From the NCBI GenBank assembly GCA_041648505.1, contig JBAZOY010000006.1:332-64331 (forward strand): a DNA stretch of 64,000 nucleotides. Reading direction: 5' to 3'. The position numbers were made by a program, and so were the translations under genes. Numbering within the stretch: position 1 is the stretch's first letter; each line of letters opens with the position of its first letter. A model generated the notes under the pieces. The model saw nothing but the letters and a program-made list of their open reading frames with translations, did no database searches and was not told the DNA's origin. The DNA is from Syntrophales bacterium. Its GTDB lineage: Bacteria; Desulfobacterota; Syntrophia; Syntrophales; CG2-30-49-12. Shown in pieces: positions 2,754 through 20,401 of the stretch.

Positions 2754-3109
2754 AGAAGAGAATTTTCCGGCATGGGACATACCAGGTGTCATTTGTCTGG
2801 GAAAATATCGATAGTTCCGAAGTCCGAAAAAGAAAATACCGAAGAAATTTATTGTAATAGAATGATCCTCTGAATATAATATAAGTAAATTCAAGTAAAT
2901 TTGTTTTCGTCCCACGGGTTAGTGGTAAAATCAACGCTGTAAGGGTTTAACCGTGTTGATAAATGGGAGCTTCTATTTTTCTAAATTCTTAAAAACACCA
3001 AAGATATCAGTACGGCAATTTTTTAACCCGTATTCTCAATAAAGGAGGGCATGGGAGCGCAAGCCGGTCGATGGACTATCGTCCGGTTTATACAGACTGT
3101 ATAATCATT

Positions 3110-3116
3110 GTTGGGC
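3110..3116 (+). mobile_element. Integron-type core site GTTGGGC (R' of an attI or attC preceding the first recognisable cassette)
   Basis: GTTRRRY match 24 nt upstream of ORF 3140. TTGGGC is the perfect complement of the R'' GCCCAAC at 3610-3616. Confidence 0.5.
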
Positions 3117-3139
3117 CAGACTAAAAGAGGAGGTGAATT

Positions 3140-3544
3140 GTGAGTGAAGAATGGCGAAGCAATTGGAGCCGACATTATGATCAGGTGCAATGGACGGCAA
3201 CCACCTTGTTGATGGCCGCAATTGGCGGTCTGCTCGCCTTTTCGTATTCGCAAGCTGGGGTTCCCTTTGACCCGTGGATTCCCGCCATTGGCTTGTGGTT
3301 AACGTGGCTTGCGGTCTATTACGCCGCCAGTTGTCGTGAACTCCGACGACTCCTTCATGACGACCTTCCTGCGGGCGACGAGAAGGCCTTTCTGAGCAAG
3401 TGTCGTGATCTTAGGCAGTGGCCGGTGTTTCTAGTGACGTTTGCAATCATCACGATCGCCTGGTTATGGCACTGCTGGGCACATGACTGGCACTGGTTGT
3501 CGCTGGCTCTGCTTGGCTTGCCGTCAGTATTGCATGGTTCCTGA
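3140..3544 (+). CDS. Hypothetical multi-pass membrane protein (cassette ORF)
   Basis: 134-aa ORF with GAGGAGG upstream of a GTG start and 3-4 hydrophobic Trp-rich segments. No recognisable family. Confidence 0.55.
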   Translation: MSEEWRSNWSRHYDQVQWTATTLLMAAIGGLLAFSYSQAGVPFDPWIPAIGLWLTWLAVYYAASCRELRRLLHDDLPAGDEKAFLSKCRDLRQWPVFLVTFAIITIAWLWHCWAHDWHWLSLALLGLPSVLHGS

Positions 3545-3609
3545 TGTCCTATCATGCCAGCCGACGAACATGCAGTCAGCCGGAGAAAGAGCATATGGAA
3601 GAGGGGGAG

Positions 3610-3671
3610 GCCCAACATCCGCCTGCAAAATAGCGTCGCTTCGCGCTGCAGTTTGAGGCGGGGCGTTAGCC
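3610..3671 (+). mobile_element. attC-like site P1 (62 bp)
   Basis: GCCCAAC ... GTTAGCC with internal pairing CCGCC/GGCGG and TGCA/TGCA. It lies between two ORFs, and the next ORF starts 20 nt after it. Confidence 0.7.
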
Positions 3672-3690
3672 CTTCTCGTCAGGAATAAAC

Positions 3691-4590
3691 ATGTCTCATG
3701 ATCACAACCATCAAGCGGGGAATTACAATCGTGCCTTTGCCATTAGTGTTGTCCTCAATGTTGTTTTCGTCGTCATTGAAGCAAGCTATGGTATTGTGGC
3801 CGAATCCATGTCCCTGGTGGCAGATGCCGGCCATAATCTGAGCGATGTGCTAAGCCTGTTACTAGCTTGGGGGGCAAGTGTGCTGGCCGCAAAAGCCGCA
3901 ACAGAGCAAAGAACATATGGATTCCGCAAAGCAACGATAATGGCTTCTTTGGCAAGTGCAATATTGCTACTGGTTGCCATGGGCGGCATTATACTGGAAG
4001 CCATTGGTCGATTCTTCGACCCAAAACCAGTTGAGGGTATGACCATAATAGTGGTTGCTGCTATTGGCGTTCTTATTAATACAATCACAGCCTTGCTTTT
4101 TGTATCTGGCCGAAAAGATGATCTGAACATTAGAGGTGCGTATCTTCATATGGCCGCTGATGCTGGTGTTTCATTCGGTGTTGTTGTGGCAGGTATAGTT
4201 ATCGTGCTCAAAGGCTGGTTATTGATTGATCCTCTGATCAGTCTAGTTATTGTGGCTGTTGTTCTCATCAGCACCTGGTCTTTGTTACGTGATTCGATGA
4301 ATCTTGCCATAGATTCAGTACCTGCAGGCATTGATATGGCTGGAATAAAAACATACTTGAACTGTCTTGAAAGCGTTTGTCAGATACATGATCTGCATGT
4401 TTGGCCTCTGAGTACTTCAGAGATTGCTCTGTCTGTCCATTTGATTGGAACCGGCGATCCCATGAGAAACGATTTTCTGATTGAAGTCCAGCAACATTTA
4501 CATGATCAGTTCGGCATAGAGCATGCCACAATTCAGGTTGAAAACGAAGCTGATGGTCAATGTGTTTTGAACAAGAACAGCTGTATATAG
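3691..4590 (+). CDS. czcD: Cation diffusion facilitator family metal efflux transporter
   Basis: His-rich N-terminus (HDHNHQ), CDF signature region SLVADAGHNLSDV, six TM segments and a C-terminal cytoplasmic domain. Confidence 0.9.
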   Translation: MSHDHNHQAGNYNRAFAISVVLNVVFVVIEASYGIVAESMSLVADAGHNLSDVLSLLLAWGASVLAAKAATEQRTYGFRKATIMASLASAILLLVAMGGIILEAIGRFFDPKPVEGMTIIVVAAIGVLINTITALLFVSGRKDDLNIRGAYLHMAADAGVSFGVVVAGIVIVLKGWLLIDPLISLVIVAVVLISTWSLLRDSMNLAIDSVPAGIDMAGIKTYLNCLESVCQIHDLHVWPLSTSEIALSVHLIGTGDPMRNDFLIEVQQHLHDQFGIEHATIQVENEADGQCVLNKNSCI

Positions 4591-4593
4591 AAG

Positions 4594-4652
4594 GGCTAAC
4601 AATTCCTTCAAGGCGACACCAAGGGGTGTCCTCCCTTGAGCCTCGGTTCATT
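4594..4652 (+). mobile_element. attC-like site P2 (59 bp)
   Basis: GGCTAAC-AATTCC-TTCAAGG-CGACACCAAGGGGTGTC-CTC-CCTTGAG-CCTCG-GTTCATT. The 5' half resembles, from memory, aadA-type 59-base elements (TAACAATTCGTTCAAGCCGAC). R'' is the perfect complement of P1's R'. Confidence 0.75.
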
Positions 4653-4806
4653 CCCGAAAGTCGTCCAGTTTCCTCTTTGCGCCCGATAGACGGCTGGCTT
4701 TAATTCAGGTCATCTGTTACAATTTCGCTAATGAACGTGGGCGCAAAGGTTCATTCCGCAGGCGCCCTTGGCGCGCCTCAATTGGCGTTATGCCTGAAAA
4801 AGGCTC

Positions 4807-4836
4807 TTGCAAATACTAAATATTGTACGTTATAAT
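4807..4836 (+). promoter_or_regulatory. Sigma70-like promoter with overlapping palindrome (probable Phd operator)
   Basis: TTGCAA-N18-TATAAT. The inverted repeat TGTAC-N8-GTACA spans the -10 box, 33 nt upstream of phd. Confidence 0.55.
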
Positions 4837-4868
4837 GTACATAATTTAGAAACAACGCGAGGTGAAAA

Positions 4869-5150
4869 ATGCAAAGATTAAAAATTAATCAAGATATCAA
4901 ACCACTATCCGAGGTAAGGATAGGTATCGCAAACTTCATAAAGCAAGTTCATGATACAAAAAGACCTTTGATTATTACGCAGCACGGAAAAGGTGTTGCC
5001 GTTTTATTGGATGCTTATGAATATGAAGCAATTCAGGAGAAACTTGAGCTTTTGACAGATGTTCAGGCATCCCTTAATCAACTCGAAAATGGACAAGGTA
5101 TTGCTCATGAAGATGCAAGGGGAAAAGTTTTGAAGAGAGTCCAGGAATGA
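4869..5150 (+). CDS. Phd/YefM family type II antitoxin
   Basis: 93 aa; the KRPLIITQHGKGVAVLLDAYEYE region is typical of Phd/YefM. GAGGTG RBS. The stop overlaps the next ATG (ATGA). Confidence 0.85.
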   Translation: MQRLKINQDIKPLSEVRIGIANFIKQVHDTKRPLIITQHGKGVAVLLDAYEYEAIQEKLELLTDVQASLNQLENGQGIAHEDARGKVLKRVQE

Positions 5151-5317
5151 AAATCATTTGGTCGCCGTTGGCTATTGATAGAGCTTCGGAAATCGCTGAA
5201 TATATAGCCCAGGACAAACCATCTGCAGCAGAAAAATGGATTAACACGGTATTTTCAAAAGTTGAGCAGCTAAAATTTTCTCCTGAAATCGGCACGGTAA
5301 GCAGATACTGCCAATAG
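5147..5317 (+). pseudogene. ParE/RelE-family toxin, truncated after 56 codons
   Basis: MKIIWSPLAIDRASEIAEYIAQDKPSAAEKWINTVFSKVEQLKFSPEIG is a ParE-like N-terminal half. It then ends abruptly at TAG 5315-5317. Too short for the ORF track. Confidence 0.6.
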
Positions 5318-5722
5318 ATGAAATTTTGGCATAACTACAGCTTGAGGGACGTGGGTTCCGCTGCGGCTGCCAAGAACCCCCCTGAACTGCGCGCACTGGG
5401 GACAGGACTCCTGGCGGGAGTCGGGGGTGTTTCTGTCGTTCTTGGCCTCGCTGCCCAGAACACTCTTTCCAATCTGGTTGCGGGACTGTCACTGGTGCTC
5501 TACAGGCCCATTCGAGTAGGAGACAACGTTCAACTGACCACCCCAAGAGGGCTGATGACTGCCACTGTGGAGGTTGTCTCTCTCGGCTGCACGGTTCTTC
5601 GCGATGCTGACAAGCACGAGGTTATTGTCCCCAACAGCGTGATGGCGAGCAGCGTAGTGATTTCGGCTCGGAGCAACAAGAGTGTCTACCGATTGAACTG
5701 CCGACAGTTAGCCGGTAAATGA
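5318..5722 (+). pseudogene. C-terminal fragment of an MscS-family mechanosensitive channel
   Basis: Only the TM3/beta-domain region is present (LGLAAQNTLSNLVAGLSLVLYRPIRVGDNV...). The N-terminal TM helices are missing, and it abuts the truncated toxin. Confidence 0.65.
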
Positions 5723-5907
5723 AACATGCAACTCCTTTTCTGTAAACAAGATTCAAGTAAGTCTAAAAGGCTTGAGCACATAACTCCTGGGACGTAATGC
5801 CGGGGACGGGACGGTAATTACGCGGAAGTACGACGACCATCCTCCGCGTCTTCTGCTCTTTGCGGGTTAGTTCAGGTGTTGTAAAAACAATAAGGAGCTC
5901 TTGAATC

Positions 5908-6783
5908 ATGAAACTAATCGTTCAGTCAATAATTATTTGCATTATCCTGTCAACAGGGCCGGCCTTTTCCAAAACGATAAAAATAGCTGTCATACAAGAC
6001 AAACACACGGAAGGCTCTACATATTTGCTGTTGCAAGACTATCTGAAGAGCAAGAATATTGACGCCATGTTGTATTCATATGGCAGCTATCTGCTTGCGG
6101 CAAAAAACTTTGAAAAGGGTGTTGTCGATATCATGTTTACGGGATCAGGCATTGCGGGATGGATGATCATCAAAAATATTGCCTATCCGGTGGTACGACC
6201 AGTAGCTAAGGAAGGCTGGAGCACTTACTCTGCTGTTATAATCGCACCCGCCGGCTCATCCCACTTTACAGGAGAACTATCAGCGCTGAAAGGGAAAAGG
6301 ATAGCGGCCTGCGAGTTGGCATCAAGTGGTGAGTTTTTTGTCCGTTCTCTTCTGGGAGATGAGAGCGATCTGGTAATAACAGAGTCTCATAGTGATGCAC
6401 TCGAGAAACTCAAAAGCGGTGTTGTAGATATAGCCGTGATCAAGAATAGGGTATGGGATGTTTTGAAAAAGAAATATCCCGGGTTTGAGCAGATTAGCGG
6501 AGATAAGGCAGAACACCCTAATGGCACGCTTATGGCGTCTTACAATGCTGATAAGAATATCATCAAGAAGCTCAAGACATTGTTGCTTGGCTTTGAGAAC
6601 GACAGATCTCCTCAGGCGATGCGAATAAAAACAGCCATGAACATAAAGGGATTTATCCTCACACAAGAAAAAGATTTCGAACAGACCCTGGCATTACTGA
6701 AAAAAGCCGGGATATCGGAAAGGTCCGAATTTGTCTTTCACGAAGACTTGCAAAGTTCTTCTAAAAAAAAGAACAACGAATGA
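5908..6783 (+). CDS. PhnD/SsuA-like periplasmic substrate-binding protein (orphan)
   Basis: Signal peptide and AAGGAG RBS. The overall pattern (MFTGSGIAG..., ...KGKRIAA...SGEFF) resembles phosphonate-type SBPs. No cognate permease or ATPase is adjacent. Confidence 0.65.
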   Translation: MKLIVQSIIICIILSTGPAFSKTIKIAVIQDKHTEGSTYLLLQDYLKSKNIDAMLYSYGSYLLAAKNFEKGVVDIMFTGSGIAGWMIIKNIAYPVVRPVAKEGWSTYSAVIIAPAGSSHFTGELSALKGKRIAACELASSGEFFVRSLLGDESDLVITESHSDALEKLKSGVVDIAVIKNRVWDVLKKKYPGFEQISGDKAEHPNGTLMASYNADKNIIKKLKTLLLGFENDRSPQAMRIKTAMNIKGFILTQEKDFEQTLALLKKAGISERSEFVFHEDLQSSSKKKNNE

Positions 6784-6907
6784 ACCAGGCCAGTCAGAAG
6801 GTCGTTATTTGCCCAGTTGCTGAACCTGATGAACAGTATTCGCATCTAGTTTTTGTCGAAAGGTTAGCATTCTGTTCTGCGTCGACCACAAAGATGGAGG
6901 TGATTTC

Positions 6908-7291
6908 ATGTATTATATAGTTGAAACCGACAAATCATTCGACCAGGCGTCGGCAGACCTTGAATCAGCGGTTAAACGTCATGGCTTCGGGGTACTGCAT
7001 GTCCACGACCTGGGTACAACTCTCCGCGTTAAAGGCATTGTCTTTGATGAGCAATGCAAGGTTTTTGAAGTCTGCAATCCGGTGCAGGCGGCAAAAGTTC
7101 TGTCAACCGATATGCGCCTGAATATGGCGCTGCCGTGTCGTATCTCGGTGTTTACGGAGAAAGGCAAAACGAAGATTGGTCTTATTAAACCAGGGCAAAT
7201 GCTTTCGGCGCTATCTCAGGATGCAGCGTTAGTTCAAGTTGCCAAAGGGGTTGAGGAAAAGACCATTCAGATGGTTGACGAGGCGAAATGA
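6908..7291 (+). CDS. DUF302 domain protein
   Basis: 127 aa. The pattern FGVLHVHDLG...FEVCNP...ALPCRISVF is typical of DUF302. Confidence 0.75.
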   Translation: MYYIVETDKSFDQASADLESAVKRHGFGVLHVHDLGTTLRVKGIVFDEQCKVFEVCNPVQAAKVLSTDMRLNMALPCRISVFTEKGKTKIGLIKPGQMLSALSQDAALVQVAKGVEEKTIQMVDEAK

Positions 7292-7300
7292 ATAATCGCC

Positions 7301-7357
7301 GCAAAACCAATAAGGATTGATTAGACCTGCGGGAATTCCTAATCCCAAAACTGTACG
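7301..7357 (+). repeat. B-type attC-like repeat, copy B1
   Basis: AACCAATAAGGATTGATTAGACCTG matches the 22737-22793 copy (minus strand) at 23/25 positions. Inverted repeat GATTAG/CTAATC. It lies just downstream of a stop codon. Confidence 0.55.
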
Positions 7358-7381
7358 GGAAGATATTAACTTTTACACATT

Positions 7382-8131
7382 ATGCATAAGCTTGTCTTGC
7401 TTCGCTACGGCGAATCACAATGGAATCTTGAAAACCGTTTTACGGGATGGGTTGATGTTGATCTTTCCCAGGAGGGAATTGAGGAGGCTATTGGTGCAGG
7501 CCGAACATTGAAAGAACATGGTTTCTTCTTCGATGCCGCATTCACATCGGTCCTGAAGAGAGCGATCCGCACGTTATGGATTGTTCTTGATCAGATGGAT
7601 TTGATGTGGATTCCTGTTTACCATTCGTGGAGGCTCAACGAACGCCACTATGGCGCTCTTCAGGGGTTGAATAAAACAGAAATGGCGGAGAAGTACGGAG
7701 AGAAGCAGGTGAATATCTGGCGGCGGAGCTACGATACTCAGCCGCCTGCTCTTGATAAGAACCACCCGATGTATTCCGGTAATGATCCTCGGTACCGTAA
7801 TCTCGCCGCGAAAGATATTCCACTCACAGAATGCCTCAAGGATACTGTTGCCCGCTTTCTTCCCTACTGGCATGATTCTATAGCCCCTACGATCAAGAGT
7901 GGGAAACGAGTAATTATTGCCGCTCATGGCAACAGTTTGCGTGCATTGGTTAAATATCTCGATAATACCTCTGATGAGGAGATAACTGAGCTGAATATTC
8001 CTACCGGTGTTCCGCTTCTTTATGACCTCGATGCAGACCTGAAGCCGCTGAGTCACAAGTTTCTCGGCGATGAAGAGGCGATCAAAGCGAAAATGCAGGC
8101 CGTCGCGAATCAGGGGCAAGCAAAACGGTGA
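7382..8131 (+). CDS. gpmA: 2,3-bisphosphoglycerate-dependent phosphoglycerate mutase with Tyr in place of the phospho-accepting His
   Basis: [12 protein letters not shown] (normally RHGESxWN), ERHYG and [10 protein letters not shown] are present. Codon TAC at 7406-7408. Confidence 0.85.
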
Positions 8132-8156
8132 CTGTGCACGGCGACTCCAGTAAAAG

Positions 8157-8263
8157 ATGAAAACGATAAGTAATTTCGAAAAGAGCCCGATTATAAAGGA
8201 GCAGGAGATTGAGTGTGAAATCATTGACCTTGCCCATGGAGGCGATTCGGTCGCGAAACACGG
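8157..8263 (+). pseudogene. Relic 5' fragment of an rlmD (RumA) gene
   Basis: 8173-8262 matches 12093-12182 at 79/90 nt with no gaps (manual count). It encodes the start of the TRAM domain (IIKEQEIECEIIDLAHGGDSVAKH), then diverges. Confidence 0.7.
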
Positions 8264-8470
8264 GGTAATTTCCGAAATTCCGCGACTTGTCGAACGGATG
8301 TTTAATCTGCACAAACACTGTTGGAAGCCAGGACGAGCCACGATAAAACTTCTGTCCAGCGTCAGATTGACAATCTGGTATGAGTTGTATAGACTGACCC
8401 AGGAAGAAATCGCCATTGCGGAGACTTGTCAGACAATACGGCAGCTATAAATCATTCCCATAGGTTTTGA

Positions 8471-9598
8471 ATGACGACGAACAAACAAATTTTTTATGTG
8501 TTCTTGATGTGTATCTCTTTTTTGTTGGTGTCTTGCGGAAAGGATTCGGTTGTGTCTTATGTGCCGGTTACAGGTTGGGTCATTGGCACCGCAACGGACG
8601 AAGACACGGGTATTCCCACGCCTGAAGTTCTCAAAACAACAAACGGCGGTGCGACTTGGACGCTGCAATCCCTGCCTGCCGAGTGCGTCGGCTTTCAGGG
8701 AAACGATATCAGCGCCGTCAATCATCAGGTGGCTTGGGCGGCGATAGGTGATTTATACAGCTTGGAGGGTGGTATTGTGCATACCTTGGATGGCGGCGCA
8801 ACCTGGGCTATGCAAACGCTTCCCGACGGAATGGGCAACCGGCATATCAAAGGGATCAAAGGGGTCAGCGCCATGGAAGCCTGGGCCGTCAGCATCGGCG
8901 GTGACGTGCTGCATACCACGGACGGCGGGAACAACTGGTACATTGTTCCGACGCGTACTGTTTCGGGCGAGGTCATTACGATGACGATGGTCAATCGGAT
9001 GGATGTGACAGACAGTAACATCTGGATTGTCGATGTGCCGGCGCACAACATGGGCGTGATCCACTCGCCGGACGGCGGTCAAACGTGGCGGCATGAACAA
9101 CTGCCGGATGTTGGTTCCGGACACGGACCTCTCGCCATCTCCGCCTTTAGCTCATTGGTTGCCTATGTCTCGGTGAATTCCGAAGGTACTTTATGGTGGA
9201 CAAGCAATGGTGGCGAATCATGGAACAAAAGCGTCGATGCCATTTCCGGCACGGCGGATTTCGACGAAATCTGCGCCTCCAGCACCAATGTCGTCTGGGT
9301 TGCCATGAACAACGGCGGTTCCAGCGGTGGCTTGGCCGCCCGAATTACGGTGACGGACGGCAGCTTTGACTCCAATATCTATATGAACGTGGACTACATG
9401 ATGGAAGGGATTTCCGCCATGAACGATACAAACGCTTGGCTGGTCGGATTCAAAACATTTCGCGCCGACCCTTCTCTTCCCAAGGGCGCAATCTATGTCA
9501 CGTACGATGGCGGGGTCAACTGGCAGCTCCAAACTCTGCCGGATAACGCCTGCGACATCGATTTATGGAAAGTCTCGTTTGTGGGCGCAAGACGTTAA
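8471..9598 (+). CDS. Lipoprotein with six Asp-box (BNR) repeats; beta-propeller, Ycf48/sialidase-like fold
   Basis: Lipobox LLVSC. Repeated S/T-x-D/N-G-G-x-T/N/S-W units: TNGGATW, LDGGATW, TDGGNNW, PDGGQTW, SNGGESW, YDGGVNW. Confidence 0.7.
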   Translation: MTTNKQIFYVFLMCISFLLVSCGKDSVVSYVPVTGWVIGTATDEDTGIPTPEVLKTTNGGATWTLQSLPAECVGFQGNDISAVNHQVAWAAIGDLYSLEGGIVHTLDGGATWAMQTLPDGMGNRHIKGIKGVSAMEAWAVSIGGDVLHTTDGGNNWYIVPTRTVSGEVITMTMVNRMDVTDSNIWIVDVPAHNMGVIHSPDGGQTWRHEQLPDVGSGHGPLAISAFSSLVAYVSVNSEGTLWWTSNGGESWNKSVDAISGTADFDEICASSTNVVWVAMNNGGSSGGLAARITVTDGSFDSNIYMNVDYMMEGISAMNDTNAWLVGFKTFRADPSLPKGAIYVTYDGGVNWQLQTLPDNACDIDLWKVSFVGARR

Positions 9599-9864
9599 CG
9601 CCGGAATTATCGCTCCGGCAATGAAATGCTGACATACGATATATTTTTCTTCTACCTGTGGTTGCGAGGCGCGCTGCTATCGTAAAGCTGCAGGACATTG
9701 AGTATGCCGACTTTATGAAGTTTTGTTCCTTAGTAGTCATCGACAAGGGCCAAACCCAGTTTATCCGATTCGGCTCATACAGCCATCGTGCAGGCAAACA
9801 GCGAAACCAATCCCGGAGATACAAAAAGTTCTTTTTTCCACCACTCTTTCCGTATTTAAGGAAC

Positions 9865-10764
9865 TCAATCCTCAAGGAACTCAAGTACAATCTTACTGAA
9901 TTTTTTCGGCCACTGATACATAAGGCCATGACCGCCACCTTTAATCTGCACCAGCCAGGCGCCGGGAATTTTTTGTGCTAAGATTAAAGAATTGAGTGTC
10001 GGCGTATTGACATCTTCGGATCCGGTAATGAGTAAAGTAGGCTGCGTAATTTGTGGAAGGCGACTATAAGACCCAGTCCATGCCTCATTTGCCTTCCATT
10101 GACGTTGAATATTAGTTGTGGATGTAGTTTCTTTGGGGTGGGGAAAATATTTCCGGGGGTCAGGATTATCTTTCAGCCATTGCTCGGGGAATAATGTCCT
10201 GAGAGCTTTCATCTGTCTTTCTCGCTCTGTACCGGATTCATCAATCATTGCCCGGATGACATCCGGGGTCGGCTGGATGGCTTCTTTACCTCCGCAATCT
10301 GCCGCATACAGGATAAGCTTATTGACCTTTTCTGGATGCCTGAGCGTAAGCTCCTGAGCGACACAAGTACCCATAGACCAGCCAAGCACATGCGCTTTAT
10401 TGATCTTCAGGGCTTCCATCAATCTGGCTGTATCATCTGCGAATAGTTCGATCGAAAATTCTCTGTCTGAGTCATCGCTATACCCCATCCCCCGGTTATC
10501 AAAGATAATTACTCTATAATGAGACGCAAGTTCTCCCAAAACCACAGGGCTCCAAAGGTCCATGGTTCCGCTAAAACCCATGATCAAAACAATCGGGTAG
10601 CCTTTGCCAAATGTCTTATAGGCGATATTTATATCGCCTGCATGAATCATTCCGGTTTTTAATTTTGTGACGTCGATTTCTTTAGCACAGCCGCAGCCTG
10701 CTGAAAAAATCATGAGGCCGCGCAGAAACCAGAGACTAATTATCTTGAATGTCTGTCTCTTCAT
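9865..10764 (-). CDS. Alpha/beta-fold hydrolase lipoprotein
   Basis: Start chosen at MKRQTF, preceded by AAAGGAGGG. Lipobox FSAGC, nucleophile elbow GWSMG, C-terminal GGGH. Confidence 0.8.
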   Translation of the reverse strand: MKRQTFKIISLWFLRGLMIFSAGCGCAKEIDVTKLKTGMIHAGDINIAYKTFGKGYPIVLIMGFSGTMDLWSPVVLGELASHYRVIIFDNRGMGYSDDSDREFSIELFADDTARLMEALKINKAHVLGWSMGTCVAQELTLRHPEKVNKLILYAADCGGKEAIQPTPDVIRAMIDESGTERERQMKALRTLFPEQWLKDNPDPRKYFPHPKETTSTTNIQRQWKANEAWTGSYSRLPQITQPTLLITGSEDVNTPTLNSLILAQKIPGAWLVQIKGGGHGLMYQWPKKFSKIVLEFLED

Positions 10765-10800
10765 CAACCTGCACCCTCCTTTTTTTAGGGTAGAAAAAAT

Positions 10801-10880
10801 GGGGTTACTGAGGAGGATCGAACTTCCAACCCCCAGAACCACAGTCTGATGCTCTTCTTTCCAATTGAACTGTATCCGCC
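10801..10880 (-). tRNA. tRNA-His(GUG)-like sequence with an unpaired acceptor stem (probable pseudogene or attachment-site relic)
   Basis: D arm GTTC/GAGC, anticodon arm TCAGA-CTGTGGT-TCTGG, T arm GGAAG-TTCGATC-CTCCT, 3' C-CCA. The 5' GCGGATA pairs with 3' CAGTAAC at only 3 of 7 positions. Confidence 0.35.
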
Positions 10881-11297
10881 ATTTCAACACACATAAATTT
10901 TATCCGATTTATTAACTGCTGTAAAGAAAGATAACGATTTGCGTCATTTCCCTGAATGATTCTTCAATCCGCATACCCCCAAACGAACATTACTATGGAG
11001 GCCAAACCATATTTTTCAATTGAACAAGGCTTCCTCTGGAGGTACGTTATTCGATAGACCTTGGGGTAATTTCCGGGAACTTCTCCGGGTTGTAATTCCG
11101 GTTTTAAATCAGAGATGAAATCAAGGTGGCAGGGAGGAAGCGCCGCAAGCGTACATGAAACGTACTCCGAGGAGCCTAATGCGACAATTGTGTCCTAACG
11201 TTAAAAGAACCGAGAATTTTCTTGGTTATGCTGGTATGCAAATAAAAGAGTAAGATGACTTATTGTTATCAGTGGAGGAGAGAATTGCTTTTTGAAA

Positions 11298-11682
11298 TCA
11301 GAAAGGGATCACATAAACTGTGTCCCCCTCTTTTCGCCCCTTTACCAGTTCGCAGTGTCTCAGGATAGCTATCTGATTCTCCAGTTCTTGAAGGAGATAG
11401 ATGGAATGTGTCGGTAAGCTCTGCGGCGGTGGTCTTACCTTTAGAATTGACGAATTCACAAATTGACTTTTGCAGCTCAGTTAAACCTTCTGTTGCTTCA
11501 AGTCCGGACGCCTTTCGGTATTGCGTGGCCGAACGTACTGCAAAGGGATCACAAGTTTGAACCCGCTGGGTTGCCATTATATAGCAGTCTTCACAAACAA
11601 CCAGCTCTCCGAGATTCAAGCTATCATCCGGGGAAATTTCATCCCCGCATTTTTGACATTTAACTTTTTCGGTCTGTGTCAT
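11298..11682 (-). pseudogene. Small zinc-ribbon plus winged-helix protein, frameshifted
   Basis: N-terminal CQKCG...CEDC. After about 11394 the conserved C-terminus LQELENQIAILRHCELVKGRKEGDTVYVIPF* is in the +1 frame and ends at 11298. Removing one nt in TCTCCTT restores it. Confidence 0.6.
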
Positions 11683-12082
11683 TAAACTACCCTTCGTTTC
11701 ACAGGCCCTACTATAACTTTACTATGGCTCTTTTGCATAAGGCAATACTCTTTAAGAAAAACAACTGGTTCGTCATTGATGAGGGATTGTTTTTCATGCC
11801 GGAAGTATACGAGGACGGATATTGTGTGTCAATGGAATAATGATCACAAAAATATTGGTTGTGGTATCGATGAATATGGGAGGTGTGGGAGGGGGGGGAT
11901 GATTCCCGGGAAGAGTATACTTAATTGTGGAGAATACCCAAAGTTATTACATTGGCTCTGTGGCGTAAAAACTTTTATATGGTATACTAGTTTTAAAAAT
12001 TGGTTATTCGTGGCGAGACGGTGTTAACCGAGTATAAATTGGTCCCAAGAGCTTGTGCGCTGGGTTCCAGAAAGAGAAGAAA

Positions 12083-13459
12083 ATGACAAAAAAATTCGAA
12101 CAGATCCCGGTTATAAAAGGGCAGGAGATTGAGACCGAAATCATTGACCTTGCCCATGGTGGCAATTCGGTCGCGAAACACGACACTTTCACCCTTTTCA
12201 TACCGTATGGAGTCCCAGGCGACAAAGTCAAAGTAAAAATCACTGACGTTAAAAAGAATTTCGCCAATGCCGAAATAGAATCTATTATTACCCCTTCAGC
12301 GTTAAGGATTATACCCCCCCCGTGTCCATATTTCGGGCAATGCGGCGGCTGCCACTGGCAGAACGTTGCCTATAATGCCCAGTTGGAATTCAAGTTAAAA
12401 TCAATAACCTCGTCCCTCAAAAAAATCGCCGGTTTGACGATTGAAACACCGGAAATAAAAGGGTACGAAAATCCCTTTTCCTACCGCGACAGGTCGCAGT
12501 ACAAGCTCGCGCAGGGGGAAGATACGGTGATGATGGGTTTTTACAGAGCAGGAAGCCACGATGTCATAGACGTGCAAAAATGCTTGATACAAAAAGAGGT
12601 CATCAACCACGTCATGGCGGGCGCGCGAGAGTTCCTGGCCGCGAACAAAAATACGAGCCTTTCAATGTATGACGAGAGCAGGGCAAGTGGCGCGTTACGC
12701 TATTTGACAGCCAGGGTGAACAGCACCGGCGAATGTCTCTTTACCGTAATTACCCACGAGAAGAGAAGGAACGACTCCATAGAAAAATTCGCAAAATATA
12801 TGAAAGAAAATTACTCCGAGATAAAAGGGGTTGTAATGAACGTCAACCCGCTGACTGGCAACAGGATATTCGGCAACAGGGAAGACACGCTGGCAGGGGA
12901 GGGCAGTATAAGAGAAAAAATAAGGGGTGTGGAATTCGAGCTCGGGGCGGAGACATTTTTTCAGGTAAATACGGAGCGTTTGAACGACATACTGGATTTT
13001 ATAGATGCAAACATACCGGAGGGCGATTCCGTGGTTGACCTTTACGCGGGCGTGGGCGCTCTCTCCCTTCCTTTACATGGAAAAATCAGAGAACTCAAGG
13101 CAGTCGATGTTTTTTACAAGTCCATTAATTCCTTCAGAAAAGCTGTGGAAACAGGGCAGATCGCGAACGCGGAGATAATAAAAGCAACGGCAGAAGCCGC
13201 GGCGGATGAAGTGATACAGAAGGGTAAAACCGGCACGGTAATAGTAGACCCGCCTCGCAAAGGGCTTCATAAGTGGGTAATACAGGCCATCAAGAAGAAG
13301 AGAGTGGAAAACTTGATATATATTTCCTGCGACCCGGCTACCTTTGCCAGGGATTTGAAAGAACTGGGAGATATGTATATTATTAAGAAAATAGAAGCGG
13401 TTGACATGTTCCCGCAGACTTACCATGTAGAAACGCTGTGCGCGTTGGGGTTGAAGTAA
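12083..13459 (+). CDS. rlmD: 23S rRNA (uracil-C5)-methyltransferase, RlmD/RumA family
   Basis: TRAM domain, Fe-S Cys cluster (CPYFGQCGGCHWQ), SAM motif VVDLYAGVGALS, catalytic region YISCDPATFARD. Confidence 0.9.
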   Translation: MTKKFEQIPVIKGQEIETEIIDLAHGGNSVAKHDTFTLFIPYGVPGDKVKVKITDVKKNFANAEIESIITPSALRIIPPPCPYFGQCGGCHWQNVAYNAQLEFKLKSITSSLKKIAGLTIETPEIKGYENPFSYRDRSQYKLAQGEDTVMMGFYRAGSHDVIDVQKCLIQKEVINHVMAGAREFLAANKNTSLSMYDESRASGALRYLTARVNSTGECLFTVITHEKRRNDSIEKFAKYMKENYSEIKGVVMNVNPLTGNRIFGNREDTLAGEGSIREKIRGVEFELGAETFFQVNTERLNDILDFIDANIPEGDSVVDLYAGVGALSLPLHGKIRELKAVDVFYKSINSFRKAVETGQIANAEIIKATAEAAADEVIQKGKTGTVIVDPPRKGLHKWVIQAIKKKRVENLIYISCDPATFARDLKELGDMYIIKKIEAVDMFPQTYHVETLCALGLK

Positions 13460-13536
13460 AGGGGGAACGGAGTTTTCCGTTTAGAGATTTCCTCCTTTAA
13501 AGCATTACCCTATATATAGATAGAAACCAGCGGCTT

Positions 13537-13593
13537 CTTGAACAAGGGATTGAACGAGATATTTCAGGTTTCATAAATCTTGATTGGTTATCA
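13537..13593 (-). mobile_element. B-type attC-like repeat, copy B3 (terminal site of the minus-strand array)
   Basis: About 80% identical and ungapped to 22737-22793. Read on the minus strand: TGATAAC...GTTCAAG. The res stop codon sits in the R''-like end. Confidence 0.5.
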
Positions 13594-16425
13594 TTTCTCT
13601 TCAGTTACATCGTGCCTGATTAGAATATCCCGAATCTCGCCCGGAGCCTTCGCAACCGCACAATGCCAGTGCCCAAAGCCCCCGTGGGCGTTTATTGCCT
13701 GTGCCCATTCCTCCAAATAACGCCGTTTGACCTGATCTTGCTCCGTGTCCTGCCCTTTGGTCTCCAGGACGAGCATTTTGCCATTAGTCAGCCTCACCAG
13801 GAAGTCGGGCCGGTATTTGCGCACTATGCCGCGATAAACGTAGAGAACCTCAAACCCTAGGTGATCGTTCTTGGCCCAGGCGGCGACGTGGTTGCTGTCG
13901 TCCAGCACAAAGGCGTCCGACGCTTCCCAGGTGCTGTCATAGACACAGACGTTGATGTGCGATTTCTTTGTCCGCTCGCAAGGCTTGCCGGTGTACCAGG
14001 TGCGCATTTCGCCCGTGGCGCGGATGGGATGGTCGCGGTCGAACACCGGCGTAAGCCGTTCGGTGTTATCCTGCCGCACCGCCTCCCAGACGTGCTGTAC
14101 CACCCGCGACATATTGAGGGTGATGATCAACCGGCGGCGCAGTTCATCCTGATAAAACAGCGGCGGGGAAATAAAGATCTTGTCCGAACGGATGAACTCC
14201 TCCACGATGTGCACCAACTGGGCCAGCAAGACCTCGCGGCTGCCCTGCCAGGTGCGCTTCATCTGGTCAAACACGTCCCGCGCCGTCTCAAAGATGATGC
14301 GCTGGGTGCGGAACTCCCGCGCCAGACGTTCCAATTCGATGCGGCTGATCTGGCTTACATCCGGCTTACCTTCCAGCACCGGAGCCAGTTCGGCCACCTG
14401 CGCGGTGTGGGCTGCGTCCAGTTCCAGCGACCGTGCCTTGGCCCAATCCAGCGTCAGCGTTGGCTGAAAGACGCGCTCAATGCGTACCACGTTGGGCCAG
14501 CGGATTTCAAATTCCGCATTGTTCAGGTCCGGTTCAACAGGGGTCTTGGGTGTAGGCGGAGGCGGCGGCCCGTCTTCGCCCCCTTCGTGGGGCAGGAAGG
14601 TAAAGGGCACGCCAAAGATGTTGACATATTCCGGCTCGAACATTCCCGTCTCCGGGTTGACCTCGTAGGACGTGCGTCGCAGGCCGCGCCCCACCACCTG
14701 CTCGCATAGCAACTGGCTGGTAAAGGCGCGCAGGCCCATAATGTGCGTCACCGTCTTGGCGTCCCAGCCCTCGCTCAGCATCCCGACGGAAATGACCTTC
14801 CGGATGCCCGCGCCCGGCAGCCCGGCCTTGCCCACTGTGTCCACCATACGGCGCAGCAGTTCGGCTTGTGCGACTTTGGTCAGCTTGCGCTCCACTGGCG
14901 CTTCGGCTTCTTCGATCTCAGTATCAGCTTCCGCCGTCTCCAGCGGTGCAACCGGCTCCTCGCGCTCTTCCGCCTCCTTGAGCACCTTCGAGTCAATATG
15001 CAGGATGCGCTCCGGGTCGCACAGTTCGTCAATGTGAATGCGCCGGGAGTCGAAGGCGTGCTTCACCCGTGCCGCCGTCTCGGTGCGGTTGCACACTGTG
15101 ATCATCACCGGCGGGGTGGGCGCACCTATCTCCGCCCATTTCTTGTATGCCTCGCGCCAGTCGTAGCCCAGCAGGTAATAGGCGTTCAGCACCAGGTCGG
15201 GTAACGGTTCTTCCGGCTCGGCCTTGCGGTTCAGGTCGTCTTTCACGTCCGGATCGTTGTAGATGTGGTAGAGACGCGATTTGTAGGTCTTCGCGTCCGG
15301 CACAGCGTCGTCGCGTACCACCACGCGCGGAGTCTTGACCAGCCCAGATTCGATGGCGTCGTTCAGCCCAAAGTCGCTGACGATCCAGCCGAACAGCGCC
15401 TCCTCGCTGCTCTTCTTGCCCGACGGTGTAAATGGCGTAGCGGAAAAGTCGTAGCAGGTAAGGATGCCCCGCGAACGGTGCAGCCGGTCCAGCCCGCCGA
15501 TCCAGACCGTGGCCTCCTCGGCGCTGTCTTTCATATCCCGGCTGCGCAGGTATTTGCCTTCCGCATCCCAGTTGACCCGCCAGGCGTGGTGTGCCTCGTC
15601 GTTGATGACCAGCAGATTGCGGGCGTTGGCCATCTCACCAAGCACCTCGCGTGTGTAAGCTTCATCGCTCTTTACGCCGCGCTTGTCCACGCTACGCCGT
15701 TTCTTGACCTGCTCCTCGCTGTCCCAAGCCAGGACGTGCCAGTTGCGCACCAGCACCTTGCCCTGCCGCAGCTTATCCAGCAGGGCCGAGGGCACGATGT
15801 TGAACTCCTCGTAATAATTCCCAACCTTCGACGGTTCGAGTACGGCCAGCCTGCTTTTTACCGTCAGTCCTGGGGCCATCACCAAAATATTTTTGGCGAA
15901 GCGGGCGTCCTGCGGATAGGTCACCTTATTGAGGATGTGCCAGGCAATCGCCATTGCCATCACGATGGTCTTGCCGGAACCAGTCGCCATCTTGCAGCAC
16001 TGTCGCAGAAAAGCCCCGCCGTCGCCCGGAATTTCGATGCCCACCCGCTCGGCGGCGGGCGCTTCGGTCAGCCAGATCAGCGTCTCAATGGCTTCCAACT
16101 GGCAGAAGAAAAAGCGCCGCGCCTCGAACTCTTCCGGGTCCCGCCAGTGTTCCAGCAGACGCTTGGTGATGCTGGAGACGCCCGGCCAGCCCGCTTCACC
16201 CCAAGCGGCCACACGCGGACGAATCTGGTTGACCAACGGGATTTCCACAAAAATGCCGGGATCATCGAAAGCCTTGGACTCGCCCGATGCCACCACGTAG
16301 CCTGCCGGACGGCGACCCTCCACCAGATCGAAGCTGCGCGTCTCGCGTTCGTAGCGCCAGTGGCGTTCCGGCTCCGCGTAGGGAGAGTTGATGATAAGGC
16401 GATCAATCGTGGTGCGGGCCATCAA
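13591..16425 (-). CDS. res: Type III restriction endonuclease, Res subunit (SF2 helicase-nuclease)
   Basis: 944 aa. Walker A MATGSGKT, DEAH box NDEAHH, C-terminal nuclease-like region. The start overlaps the hepT stop by 4 nt. Confidence 0.9.
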   Translation of the reverse strand: MMARTTIDRLIINSPYAEPERHWRYERETRSFDLVEGRRPAGYVVASGESKAFDDPGIFVEIPLVNQIRPRVAAWGEAGWPGVSSITKRLLEHWRDPEEFEARRFFFCQLEAIETLIWLTEAPAAERVGIEIPGDGGAFLRQCCKMATGSGKTIVMAMAIAWHILNKVTYPQDARFAKNILVMAPGLTVKSRLAVLEPSKVGNYYEEFNIVPSALLDKLRQGKVLVRNWHVLAWDSEEQVKKRRSVDKRGVKSDEAYTREVLGEMANARNLLVINDEAHHAWRVNWDAEGKYLRSRDMKDSAEEATVWIGGLDRLHRSRGILTCYDFSATPFTPSGKKSSEEALFGWIVSDFGLNDAIESGLVKTPRVVVRDDAVPDAKTYKSRLYHIYNDPDVKDDLNRKAEPEEPLPDLVLNAYYLLGYDWREAYKKWAEIGAPTPPVMITVCNRTETAARVKHAFDSRRIHIDELCDPERILHIDSKVLKEAEEREEPVAPLETAEADTEIEEAEAPVERKLTKVAQAELLRRMVDTVGKAGLPGAGIRKVISVGMLSEGWDAKTVTHIMGLRAFTSQLLCEQVVGRGLRRTSYEVNPETGMFEPEYVNIFGVPFTFLPHEGGEDGPPPPPTPKTPVEPDLNNAEFEIRWPNVVRIERVFQPTLTLDWAKARSLELDAAHTAQVAELAPVLEGKPDVSQISRIELERLAREFRTQRIIFETARDVFDQMKRTWQGSREVLLAQLVHIVEEFIRSDKIFISPPLFYQDELRRRLIITLNMSRVVQHVWEAVRQDNTERLTPVFDRDHPIRATGEMRTWYTGKPCERTKKSHINVCVYDSTWEASDAFVLDDSNHVAAWAKNDHLGFEVLYVYRGIVRKYRPDFLVRLTNGKMLVLETKGQDTEQDQVKRRYLEEWAQAINAHGGFGHWHCAVAKAPGEIRDILIRHDVTEEK

Positions 16426-16787
16426 TACACCCCCTTGTCCAACGCCTTTTCCAAGATGGATATCAGAGATGGCAAGTCATGCCTGACCGTTTGCCAGAGA
16501 ATATCCAGATTAACGTCGAAATAGGCATGGACCAGCCTATGACGCATACCGACGATGTCAGCCCAAGGAATATCCGGCACCCACGCTTGCCCGCTATTCG
16601 TAACTTGGCCAGCCGCCTCGCCAACGATCTCAACCAGCTTCACCAGCGACAACATCAACATAGGATCACGATCGAGGTCACCGCGCTTTCTGCCCTGCGT
16701 GAATTGAACCGCCTGGCGTGCCGCGTCCAGCATATGACGCAGTCGGATGGCATCATCCTTGTGCATATTGCACCTCCGCTTCCTCAA
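16422..16787 (-). CDS. hepT: HepT (DUF86) ribonuclease toxin
   Basis: 121 aa with R-x4-H-x-Y motif (RHRLVHAY). Overlaps mntA by 35 nt. Confidence 0.85.
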
Positions 16788-17058
16788 GCACGCTTTGACG
16801 AAAGTACCGGCTCAGATCTTCCGGCGTGCGAAGATCAACCTTTCGACCTTCGAGCAGGGCCGACAGATCCCGTTCCATACGCGCTATCCCGAAAAGACCA
16901 GGAATGTGATCCGATTCAAACTCGACCAGCACGTCAATGTCACTTTCGGGCCGGAAATCGGGTCGCAGCGCCGAGCCAAAGATGGCCAGACGTCGGATGT
17001 GCCGATCCCGGCAGAATGCGGCAATCCGTTCTTTAGGAATATAAATCGCGGTATTCAT
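16753..17058 (-). CDS. mntA: MntA minimal nucleotidyltransferase antitoxin
   Basis: 101 aa with [18 protein letters not shown] (GS-x10-DxD). The start overlaps the mod stop by 4 nt. Confidence 0.85.
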
Positions 17059-19628
17059 TCTCCTACCTCCATGATCTTCAAACTCTCGATGCCCCGGTCG
17101 TCCACGATCTTGACAGCGATGCGCTTGTGTTCGCCCGCCGGAAAGGGCAACGACACCGAACCCCGGTAGGCCTCGATCAACTCCTCGTCAATCTCAGCTT
17201 TGAGGTTCTTCGCCAGTTTCGTCCAGCCTTCTTTTTCTCCTGCCTGCGGGAAAAAGACCTGGCGCGGATAGAGACTGCGCCCGTCATAGTCGGTATCCAG
17301 CAGCCAGATGGCGATCTGATGCGCGCCGCCCGATTCGATGGCGCCAGTCCTGGTGTTGTAATAGTCGAACCCCTCGACGCTGACCCGCCACTTGCCCTTC
17401 TCCTCGCCTTTGGCAATGCGCTCCAGCCTCACATCCGGCTGACCGATGAGCCAGAAGGATTCGTTGCTGGCCCGCTTCTTCTTTAGGTCGTCGGTCAGCA
17501 GATCGGCGTTCATCTGTGCCTTGAGCAGGGTGACGCCCGGCCAATTGGTTTCGTCAATGTCCTTGGCGGCTTCAGGATCGAACTGGAAGGCGGCGAAGAC
17601 AATCAGTTTGGGCCTGGGCACGAGCGTTTGGGCCTCTTCGATGGCCTGGGCCACCTGGCGCTGTTCCAGCGGGGCGTGCTCCGGGCCGAAGGAGACGACG
17701 ATGCGCTGCGGCGCATAGGCCGTGCCAGCTTCACGCACCGAGTCCTTGCCTTCGGCGCTGGGGCGGGTCTCACCATCGGCGTGCAGGTGGCGGCAGCCGG
17801 GCAGGGGTTCCAGCCGGGCAAAACGGATGTGCTGGCCCGCCTTGCCGCGAATGCCCGTGCGCAGCAGTTCGTCGCGCCATTCACCCTGGCGCAGGGTTTC
17901 TCCGGAACGGGCAATGGAGAGATCGGCGCCAAACTCCCTCTCCCTCTGGGAGAGGGTCGGGGTGAGGGTCTCCTCGATAGACTTGACAGCCGGGGCTGGC
18001 ACGGCCTCCACAGTAAACGGGCCGCTGACGCGGTGTTTCTTGCGGTCCACAAGCGGCTGGTCGTAAAGCGTTTCCGTGCCGGGCGGCTCGTTGTTGGCGA
18101 TAGACTTGAGGGTGACGTGCGGCACGGTCTTGTAATTGAAGCCGCTGCCCACGCCTTCCTGCGGGTGGGCCAGTTCGTAGTAGTTGAAGACGGCAGTCAT
18201 CAGCCGCTGCTTTGCCAAGGTGAGGGCCACTCGGGATGTATCGCAGGTAATCCACCGCCGCCCCCACTGCTCGGACACATAGGCGGTGGTGCCGCTGCCG
18301 CAGGTGGGATCGAACACCAGGTCGCCCGGGTCGGTGGTCATCAGGAGGCAGCGCTTTATTGCCTCTGTCGAAGTTTGAACAACGTAGATTTTTCCTTCAA
18401 TCCTGTTCTGAACACCACCAATATCTGTCCATAGGTTGTTTATTGGATATACAGGGAAGTCATCCAAGAAGCGCAAGAACCTTGGTGAATTACCTTCAAT
18501 AACGACCCTTCTGGCCTTCAGCAAACGATATAGTCCTTCCACTTTAGTCTTCCAGTGCATACCTTTTGGCGGATGATAGTTCTTTCCATTAACCTCAAAC
18601 CTCGTTTCACTTTCAGTGGGCCCTTGGCTTGTAAGCGAGTCCACACTGACCAGTTTATCTTCTGGCCACCAATTTTGTGGTATGTTCTTATAACTTCCTA
18701 CAGGCTTGTATTTTGTTGCACCTTCTTCTCCTGCTGCTTTTTCGTTATAGAGCTGCCGGTATTTAATTCTTGCTTTATCCTTTGCGTACCAAACCAAATA
18801 ATCGCCAGCACGGCTCAAGGTCAAAGAGGCGAATCCGCTTGTCGTAGAAAATGAGACAAGGCTGACAAAATTTCCCGCCCCAAACACCTCATCCATCAAT
18901 TCCCGCACGTGATGAACGTTCTCGTCGCTGATCTGCACAAAGACGCTGCCGGATTCGGTCAGCAGTTCACGGGTTAAGAGAAGGCGGTCGCGCAGGTAGG
19001 TCAGGTAGGAGTGGATGCCCAGTTCCCAAGTGTCGCGGAAGGCACGGATCTGCTCCGGCTCGGCGGTCAGATCCTCGTCCTTGCCGTCTTTCACGTCTCG
19101 TTTATTGACAAAGGGCTGGAAATTGGAGCCGTACTTGATGCCGTATGGCGGGTCGAGATAGACCATTTGCACCTTGCCGGCCATGCCCTCTTTTTCCAGC
19201 AGCGAGTTCATCACCAGCAGGCTGTCACCGGCCACCAGACGGTTACTCCAGCCGTGGGCGTGTTGGTAGAACTCAATGGCCTCCCGGAGTGGCGGGTTTT
19301 CCTGCGACGTGGCGAACAGCGAAAACTGCACCGGCGCGGCGGGGTCGGGGACGCGGCGCACGGCCTCGATGATCGTGCGCGGGTCAATGCGCTCGTGGAC
19401 GTGCAGTGAGACGGTGGGAATCTCGAACGACGTGTGCTCCGCCTTGCCCGCCCATTTCAGTTGCGGGTCCAGGTGCGGGTCGTAGGCGTAGGTTTTCTTT
19501 GCTCCGGCGTCCGGATCGGTGTCCGGTGTTACCAGGCCGACAGGCGGATTATTCACCCGCTCTTTGCCTTTATGCTCGTAGGACTCGATCGGTTTTTTTG
19601 TTTCGGTTGTCTTTTTTCTTGCCATCAA
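17055..19628 (-). CDS. mod: Type III R-M DNA methyltransferase, Mod subunit
   Basis: 857 aa. DPPYG (motif IV) precedes [10 protein letters not shown] (motif I), the beta-class order typical of type III Mod. Confidence 0.9.
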
Positions 19629-19665
19629 TGACCTGCCTTTTGTATTTCGCGCAATTGATTGGGTA

Positions 19666-19737
19666 GGCTAACGGCGGGCATGAATGGTTGGGAAAAGCGC
19701 AAGCTTTTTTTAATCCATCTCGATGCCCCTGTTAGGC
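19666..19737 (-). mobile_element. attC-like site S1 (72 bp)
   Basis: Minus-strand read: GCCTAAC-AGGGG-CATCGAGATGG...CCATTCATG-CCCGCC-GTTAGCC. Lies between the 169-aa ORF and mod. Confidence 0.7.
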
Positions 19738-19757
19738 AATCCCTCTGAAGGAACAGT

Positions 19758-20267: not shown

Positions 20268-20289
20268 AATTTCCCTCCTAGATAAACTG

Positions 20290-20350: not shown

Positions 20351-20401
20351 AAATCCTGTTGGTTGTCTCATCCTGCATTATTGTATATGCCGTCTCGGTT
20401 C

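Follow-up and report, generated by a model that had tools for sequence, protein, structure and literature searches.

Clusters of attC sites that have no integron integrase (CALINs) are common; 83% of them contain five attC sites at most, and they mostly lack intI pseudogenes, 95% having none nearby (PMC4889954). Insertion of cassettes at genomic GWT sites has been demonstrated (10.1101/2022.09.11.507474), and toxin-antitoxin cassettes with their own promoter have been reported from chromosomal integrons (PMC13108822). A set of plus-strand genes resembling such cassettes lies between glgP and gpmA in a stretch of 64,000 nt from a Syntrophales bacterium (assembly GCA_041648505.1, contig JBAZOY010000006.1, positions 332 to 64,331), here called the window. 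The segment from 3110 to about 5385 of the window is very probably a short, decaying cluster of integron cassettes without an integrase nearby, that is, a CALIN. It is an ordinary CALIN, belonging to a well-known type of element, and it does not reveal a new mechanism.

The first cassette (3111-3665) encodes a rare small membrane protein in an open reading frame (ORF) of 134 codons, ORF134, and ends in a structurally canonical attC site, P1. The second cassette, from 3666, carries the gene for a predicted CzcD-type metal exporter followed by an attC site with a canonical 5' half, P2, and its crossover core is either GTTCATT (4646) or GTTATGC (4787). The third is a Phd/ParE cassette with a predicted promoter of its own; its toxin gene lacks the 3' part and its attC site the R', and it is joined to an internal mscS fragment. 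Boundary complementarity is exact at four successive junctions (3110/3610, 3665/4594, 4646/4730 and 4787/5329), where the first six nucleotides of the cassette match its own R'' (TTGGGC/GCCCAA, TTAGCC/GGCTAA, TTCATT/AATGAA and TTATGC/GCATAA). The first two of these matches had been described as perfect in an earlier, sequence-only reading of this DNA, and they are. From left to right the GC content at third codon positions is 0.60, 0.40, 0.29, 0.62, 0.47 and 0.50 gene by gene, with 0.60 for ORF134 and 0.40 for czcD.

As defined in the literature, a CALIN needs no fewer than two attC sites on a single strand, separated by less than 4 kb (PMC4889954). The locus agrees with this, P1 and P2 both being on the plus strand with about 920 nt between them; such a count presupposes that P2 is accepted, and P2 is counted on the strength of its unambiguous 5' half. 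It also resembles described CALINs in having neither intI nor an intI pseudogene, in its small size and in its unknown or non-resistance cargo. Unlike the usual CALIN, it has a second attC site that is partly degenerate, and there is another CALIN, oppositely oriented, at a distance of 6 kb. Because of the partly degenerate second site, IntegronFinder with default settings might see only one attC and discard the locus.

Reference attC sites were extracted from six class 1 integron regions of plasmid records; the aadA1 attC, used as a query, gave 100% matches to thousands of plasmid records. A shared layout is found in 20 of 22 reference attCs, class 1 and environmental: R'' of 7 nt, 6 nt, 2 bp, one unpaired base and a stem of at least 5 bp, returning on the 3' arm as stem, 2 bp, 6-7 nt and R' of 7 nt. 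The sites gcuL089 and w20340 depart from it. Two covariance models were used. R1 was built from 11 class 1 attCs and run unfiltered over the window; it is narrow, missing two minus-strand attCs of the window as well as arr-3 and catB11 and scoring the genuine dfrA27 site at just 14.6 bits. R2 was trained on 19 attCs cut to their two 25-nt ends (15 class 1, three minus-strand sites of the window and one from locus L096), with P1 and P2 left out of the training. A third model scores position-plus-pair log-odds and has no loop-length penalty. Comparison loci or contigs that were fetched carry L numbers (L001, L081, L091, L095, L096, L170, L171 and L172).

P1 is a bona fide attC site. Its core GCCCAAC fits RYYYAAC exactly and GTTAGCC fits GTTRRRY at six of seven positions, and its geometry (7 + 6 + CT + bulged G + CAAA against CAAA + CT + 7 + 7, with seven of eight pairs) is the canonical one of the reference sites. 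The bulged base is a top-strand G where most sites have C, and two of the minus-strand attCs of the window likewise have G. With R2 the site scores 19.9 bits (E 0.014) at exactly 3610-3671 and on the plus strand only, the best match in the window outside the training sites and surpassed only by the two best-scoring of these; the log-odds model gives it 14.4-15.1 bits. The bottom strand is predicted to fold into a single hairpin. When the attCs of three homologous cassettes are compared, three of the eight L-box pairs are compensatory, both sides having changed while the pairing was kept. A scan of the window for strict geometry found 8 sites where 2.8 +/- 1.8 were expected, P1 and two minus-strand attCs among them. 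P1 is expected to be recombinogenic still, given a compatible integrase.

The attC structure flanking czcD had been described as canonical. This is right for P1 and for the 5' half of P2 (4594-4615), whereas the 3' half of P2 is degenerate. The 5' half is an unmistakable attC half-site. Its R'' GGCTAAC fits the consensus at six of seven positions, and in a position matrix of attC 5' halves built without sites from the window it scores 29.1 bits and ranks first in 128 kb, where the next site has 13.9 bits; at 29 bits the chance expectation is about 2e-4 in 128 kb. The likeness to aadA-type 59-base elements noticed in the sequence-only reading was borne out, since 21 of the first 24 nt are identical to aadA2 and aadA1-type attCs from plasmid records. 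These attCs of class 1 mobile integrons share with P2 the R''-spacer-L'' part GnCTAACAATTCnTTCAAGnCGAC, nearly the same length (60 nt against 59 nt) and a layout in which the GAC... stem-loop is the variable part. They differ from P2 in a 3' half that is not homologous, in the L' box, where an additional G in P2 is able to pair with the base that is usually extrahelical, and in R', which is GTTAGAT instead of GTTCATT. BLAST of P2 against plasmids gave no record matching P2 as a whole.

Read as a 59-nt site, P2 fits solely with 5/5 spacers or with the normally extrahelical base paired, and it scores 15.1-15.7 bits in the log-odds model. An alternative 3' half with R' GTTATGC (4787-4793) pairs with L'' of P2 and gives an attC of 200 nt (4594-4793) with 6/5 spacing, a bulged C and seven of eight pairs. 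R1, which was trained on class 1 attCs only, joins this distal half, CGCCTCAATTGGCGTTATGCC, to the 5' half of P2 in a match at 4594-4794 (16.8 bits, E 0.054), one of its top three in the window, and the log-odds model, in which loop length is not penalised, gives 4594-4793 42 bits, the best of the window. The minimum-free-energy fold does not contain the long-range pairing of the 200-nt reading. The 3' end of P2 is ambiguous, and according to these models the distal 3' half at 4772-4793 appears to fit better than GTTCATT.

The top three matches of R1 are 19737-19666 (17.4 bits), the 200-nt version of P2 and 21172-21110 (16.6 bits). R2 finds the minus-strand site 20350-20290, which was not in its training set, with 15.6 bits, and nothing else in the window at E<4. 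In the log-odds model the six best sites are 4594-4793, then three attCs of the minus strand with 21-27 bits, 4594-4652 with 15-16 bits and finally P1 with 14-15 bits. Shuffled sequence reaches 14 bits or more 0.32 times per window and did not reach 25 bits in any of 60 shuffles. A class-1-only version of this model was run on 1.55 Mb of other loci, and five of its six best matches are independently identified attCs (L096, L170/L171 and L172). The sixth, in L001, is a false positive within dnaJ. The signal exceeds chance. All window-wide matches with E<1, from both covariance models and the log-odds model, lie inside the two proposed arrays and on the expected strand. A palindrome, TTCTAAC-N30-GTTAGAA at 46901-46944, gives weak matches on both strands in both models (about 10-11 bits, E 1.5-4.5); its symmetry and its lack of L boxes make an attC improbable. 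Scans with Rfam and for tRNA gave no match in the cassette region, and two cobalamin riboswitches (RF00174, 71 and 55 bits) are located elsewhere on the minus strand, at 38893-39093 and 40998-41213.

The behaviour of ORF134 in other genomes is that of a cassette gene. Its product has no Pfam match and only four homologues among 5.8 billion proteins, which together form a conserved family of small membrane proteins. In L170 the homologue (76% amino acid identity) is preceded by two canonical attCs, 4139-4195 (GCAGAAC..GTTAACC) and 4853-4939 (GGTTAAC..GTTGGGC), which chain by complementarity, and it is followed by R'' GCCCAAC. In L172 the homologue (63% identity) comes directly after valS and an unrelated spacer, with GTTGGGC before it and an attC at 8488-8576 (GCCCAAC..GTTATCT) downstream. 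DNA homology between the window and L170 begins exactly at GTTGGGC, reaches into the attC and stops there, and the sequences upstream of GTTGGGC are dissimilar between contexts (p 0.4-0.5). The same unit with the same boundaries is thus found in different contexts on unrelated contigs, within an array in L170 and beside valS in L172, which is the reverse of the fixed placement without variation that the sequence-only reading had regarded as not cassette-like. A string common to the window and L172 before GTTGGGC, TATAATCA, is explained by chance (p about 0.5). In the window the C-terminus of ORF134 is shortened or frameshifted, the last helix being absent when homologues are aligned, with a 5-nt indel relative to L170. 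The attC of the homologous cassette in the metagenome array of L170 (5431-5492) has kept R'' and a perfect L box and has GCTACTT in place of the GTT core; it is another decayed terminal attC.

For czcD the same pattern, one unit in different contexts, is only partly seen. More than 100 homologues at 74-82% identity occur in varied contexts. Those in L091 and L095 have an R''-like GGCTAAC 3 nt past the stop codon, the one in L096 has a complete 103-nt attC downstream, and in L081 homology in the 5' leader starts at GTTAG, the 5' boundary being the same as in the window. R2 gave no match at the loci of czcD homologues, and it also misses the full 103-nt site of L096, which was partly in its training; this negative carries no weight because R2 penalises long loops.

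Both sets lack an integrase within the window, as no match to IntI with E<2 was found by tblastn in 64 kb (best E 2.6; the query was full IntI1 from a plasmid record, and the intI_Cterm profile was not searched). The ORFs adjoining the arrays are glgP and a HTH_17/PBP_like regulator. The locus is not a complete integron, which would have intI with an adjacent attI and a cassette promoter Pc, and the different contexts do not share the sequence that precedes 3110. It could in principle be what is left of a complete integron that had its intI and attI between glgP and 3110 and lost them by deletion. The spacer there is 357 nt long, non-coding and AT-rich (GC 0.38), with a promoter-like site at 2852-2880 ahead of the first cassette, and CALINs are known to arise when intI is lost (PMC4889954). 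Nevertheless, the IntI1 search was empty in the spacer as in the whole window, the spacer is too short even for a fragment of an integrase of about 320 amino acids, and 95% of CALINs have no intI pseudogene nearby to begin with, so that deletion of a resident integrase is an improbable origin.

The likely history of the CALIN is as follows. Each cassette would once have been circular and would have been inserted by an integron integrase encoded elsewhere, through recombination of the folded bottom strand of the cassette attC at G|TT. Insertion of a circular cassette through its own attC would explain why its first six bases complement its own R'' core. For the first insertion the target may have been a GTT of the non-coding spacer that follows glgP, which would be a secondary ('attG'-type) site and not an attI. 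The ORF134 and czcD cassettes appear to lack promoters of their own, and transcription would have to enter from upstream, where the promoter-like site at 2852-2880 is one candidate. Erosion of the array now seems to be under way, with the C-terminus of ORF134 frameshifted, the 3' half of P2 degenerate, parE truncated and one attC without R'. What the sequence-only reading had proposed in outline, promoterless plus-strand cassettes with attCs and no integrase that face a minus-strand array, is upheld by the R2 score of P1, the occurrence of ORF134 in L170 and L172, the attC half-site at the 5' end of P2 and the absence of IntI matches.

This history is close to that of single attC sites lacking integron-integrases (SALINs) and the attG route described by Loot et al. 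(10.1101/2022.09.11.507474). The first cassette abuts the chromosomal spacer at G|TT and there is no attI, the ORF134 cassette is found also beside valS (L172), and the array is small and without flanking transposable elements. The locus differs in having more than one cassette, so that further attC x attC insertions or a multi-cassette circle must be assumed, and insertion is here deduced from sequence.

Several observations weigh against the identification as a CALIN. The integrase presumed to act in trans was not seen. P1 has only 4 bits with R1 on either strand, and the 59-nt version of P2 has 7.5 bits with R1 and 7.4 bits with R2, which is not significant window-wide; its R' GTTCATT departs from GTTRRRY at two of four variable positions, as does the alternative GTTATGC, and the 200-nt alternative is longer than typical attCs. 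R1 and R2 are small surrogates for the IntegronFinder model, and R2 includes three sites of the minus array of the window. Most czcD homologues have no recognisable attC. Among 5.8 billion proteins the closest glgP has 79% identity, so there is no close relative in which presence or absence of the cassettes could be compared, and exact-protein look-ups returned other contigs of the same strain only, identical over the segment. The 74 glgP loci from GTDB genomes (best 74% identity), none with gpmA or a cassette gene beside glgP, are uninformative.

Alternatively, the motifs might be chance inverted repeats or terminator-like hairpins around native genes without any integron history. Short hairpins are common after genes, the 59-nt form of P2 scores poorly, and strict geometry alone gives about 3 chance matches per 64 kb. 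Chance does not account for the E value of 0.014 for P1 in a model from which P1 was excluded, for a 5' half of P2 expected about 2e-4 times in 128 kb, for four exact complementary junctions in series or for the presence of an identically bounded ORF134 cassette in a clear array elsewhere, and the hairpins are not followed by runs of T. Such an explanation is extremely improbable and close to refuted. The features of the CALIN and its surroundings are collected in Table 1.

Table 1. Features of the plus-strand cassette cluster, its surroundings and the opposing minus-strand array; positions are those of the window.
Feature	Position	Strand	Description
glgP			Left flank gene of the plus-strand cassette set
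17-codon ORF MGAQAGRWTIVRFIQTV	3051-3104		Has a strong ribosome-binding site and stops 6 nt short of the GTTGGGC junction
GTTGGGC, left junction of array	3110-3116	+	G from target, TTGGGC first 6 nt of cassette 1; complements R'' GCCCAAC at 3610
ORF134, cargo of cassette 1	3140-3544	+	Small multi-pass membrane protein; 134 codons, GTG start 23 nt past core
attC P1	3610-3671	+	62 nt; R'' GCCCAAC 3610-3616, R' GTTAGCC 3665-3671
czcD, cargo of cassette 2	3691-4590	+	CzcD-type cation diffusion facilitator; ATG 19 nt past P1 core; Pfam Cation_efflux and ZT_dimer
attC P2, as first delimited	4594-4652	+	59 nt; R'' GGCTAAC 4594-4600, R' GTTCATT 4646-4652
ORF-less 103-nt unit	4647-4749	+	Between direct-repeat copies of GGTTCATTCC (10 nt; 4645-4654 and 4748-4757); holds AATGAAC 4730-4736
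Alternative 3' half of P2	4772-4793	+	L' CGCCTCAA and R' GTTATGC (4787-4793); pairs with L'' of P2, 200-nt attC 4594-4793
Promoter of toxin-antitoxin cassette (predicted)	4807-4836	+	Sigma-70-like, TTGCAA-18-TATAAT
phd/yefM antitoxin	4869-5150	+	Pfam
parE toxin, truncated	5147-5314	+	Pfam; 56 aa, profile positions 1-51 of 89
Remnant attC of toxin-antitoxin cassette	5329-5385	+	R'' GCATAAC complements TTATGC 4788-4793; 14 nt past truncated parE
mscS-type channel gene, internal fragment	5385-5722	+	TM3 (third transmembrane helix) and beta domain, both ends truncated; Pfam MS_channel_2nd, residues 48-114 of a 134-aa ORF
PhnD-like periplasmic binding protein	5908-6783	+	Pfam
DUF302 protein	6908-7291	+	Pfam
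B-type repeat	7300-7355	+	Three copies in the window in all, every one immediately past the last gene of a cassette-like unit
gpmA			Right flank gene of the plus-strand cassette set
attCs of minus array	22742-22680, 21172-21110, 20350-20290, 19737-19666	-	20350-20290 with degenerate L box
Unit of about 6 kb in minus array	17055-19628, 16422-16787, 13591-16425	-	Type III-like methylase, HepT toxin and ResIII helicase/nuclease, respectively

All motifs named in the sequence-only reading were found where it had placed them, including TTCATT at 4750-4755 and AATGAAC at 6779-6785 over the stop codon of the PhnD-like gene. The pairing it had proposed between these two is not sustained, as there is no attC structure and the nearer AATGAAC at 4730 weakens it further; an attC after the PhnD-like gene at 6779 was rejected for lack of structure. 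That AATGAAC, the repeat GGTTCATTCC and the GCATAAC at 5329 that complements GTTATGC at 4787 had been overlooked. AATGAAC 4730-4736 complements the first 6 nt of the 103-nt unit and answers GTTCATT at 4646, and the unit may represent a mini-cassette, the remnant of a cassette or a duplication. The 26-nt hairpin from AATGAAC to GTTCATT scores only 7.1 bits, and 4730-4793 as an attC was rejected with a score of -22 in the log-odds model.

The Phd/ParE cassette resembles the toxin-antitoxin cassettes of sedentary chromosomal integrons, for example in Vibrio cholerae (PMC13108822), in its Phd/ParE genes, its own promoter and its complementary cores. It differs from them in that the toxin is truncated to 56 amino acids, the R' of the attC is lost and the array is tiny. 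The remnant attC has partly retained L'' and L' (TT.AGGG / CCCT.AA), with GCACTGG in place of R', and it gets no score from R1 or R2. Homology to TM3 of MscS starts from about 5385, where R' is replaced by GCACTGG. The mscS fragment was also considered as a remnant of a native mscS beside glgP, as in L001, and this was rejected because there is no similarity and the two are not orthologues. The cassette is probably inactive and immobile because the toxin gene is truncated and the R' of its attC is lost.

No attC was detected in the plus-strand set to the right of about 5385. R2 gives no score at 6779 or 7300, no attC-like match exists between or after the PhnD-like and DUF302 genes (best 6.4 bits), and these two genes are only possible cassettes.

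The array facing the CALIN extends over 13538-23500 on the minus strand and has four attCs between 19.6 and 22.8 kb, chained by complementarity. Its cargo looks defence-related, with a DUF6680 protein, an HNH endonuclease, two unknown ORFs and the unit of about 6 kb. A 229-aa ORF at 21950-22639 is a truncated duplicate of the N-terminus of the methylase (300 nt with 95% identity, 21960-22259 against 18946-19245), and both copies start just past a GTTAGCC core, which suggests duplication of a cassette or partial deletion. Contig k141_681607 of ERZ27249422 is identical to the window up to 13544 and then has 20 mismatches in its last 1 kb, in the 3' part of the res gene; the mismatches at 13545-14590 reflect either an assembly artefact or variation between strains in the outermost part of the minus array.

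A B-type repeat had been reported after the DUF302 gene, and it is indeed present at 7300, where 7300-7329 is 90% complementary to 22765-22794. The repeat does not occur in 1.66 Mb of other loci. Its fold is weak and without covariation, and two of the three copies have the stop codon within an ATAAC motif. As an attC or the 5' part of a composite attC it was rejected because of misfitting spacing (4 and 1 nt) and the lack of covariation. The copies at 7300 and 13538-13602 end the two convergent arrays and bracket gpmA...trmA as inverted repeats. That the repeat is a functional terminal or recombination element of the cassette arrays in this lineage is improbable; if it were recombinogenic, the gpmA...trmA segment might be capable of inversion, or it might be a scar left when an integrase inverted it. 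Within this segment there is a direct repeat of 117 nt with 85% identity (8146-8262 against 12066-12182), the 5' end of trmA being duplicated right after gpmA with 71% amino acid identity over 34 residues. From this repeat, the 3.9 kb between the copies, which hold a BNR-repeat protein, an alpha/beta hydrolase and a zinc-ribbon protein, may be an insertion into a former gpmA-trmA junction.

The orientation of the two arrays raises the possibility that the plus-strand set and the minus array were once a single array, split and turned by inversion or rearrangement. Both sets end, toward gpmA...trmA, in mutually inverted B-type copies of a kind seen nowhere else in the window or the other loci, the unusual top-strand G bulge is common to P1 and two minus-strand attCs, the duplicated trmA 5' end is a rearrangement scar in the core segment, and rearrangement is an accepted origin of CALINs (PMC4889954). 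Against this, inverting 3110-13537 would put GTTGGGC behind the truncated attC-like stub at 13538, yet there is no L''/L' remnant on either side, and inversion between the two B-type copies alone leaves the relative orientation of the arrays unchanged. Moreover, P1 and P2 do not resemble in sequence the minus array's A-type attCs, and the ORF134 cassette standing alone by a housekeeping gene in L172 favours insertion at a secondary site. A common origin is unlikely, and independent origin of the two convergent arrays is more likely than rearrangement.

The CALIN documents integron cassettes in an uncultured lineage, with a CzcD-type exporter and a very rare family of membrane proteins placed in an ordinary chromosomal spacer. 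It is a worked example of how a cassette cluster erodes and explains why such clusters may be overlooked by automatic tools. The locus also agrees with the recently described route of cassette insertion at secondary sites in the genome.

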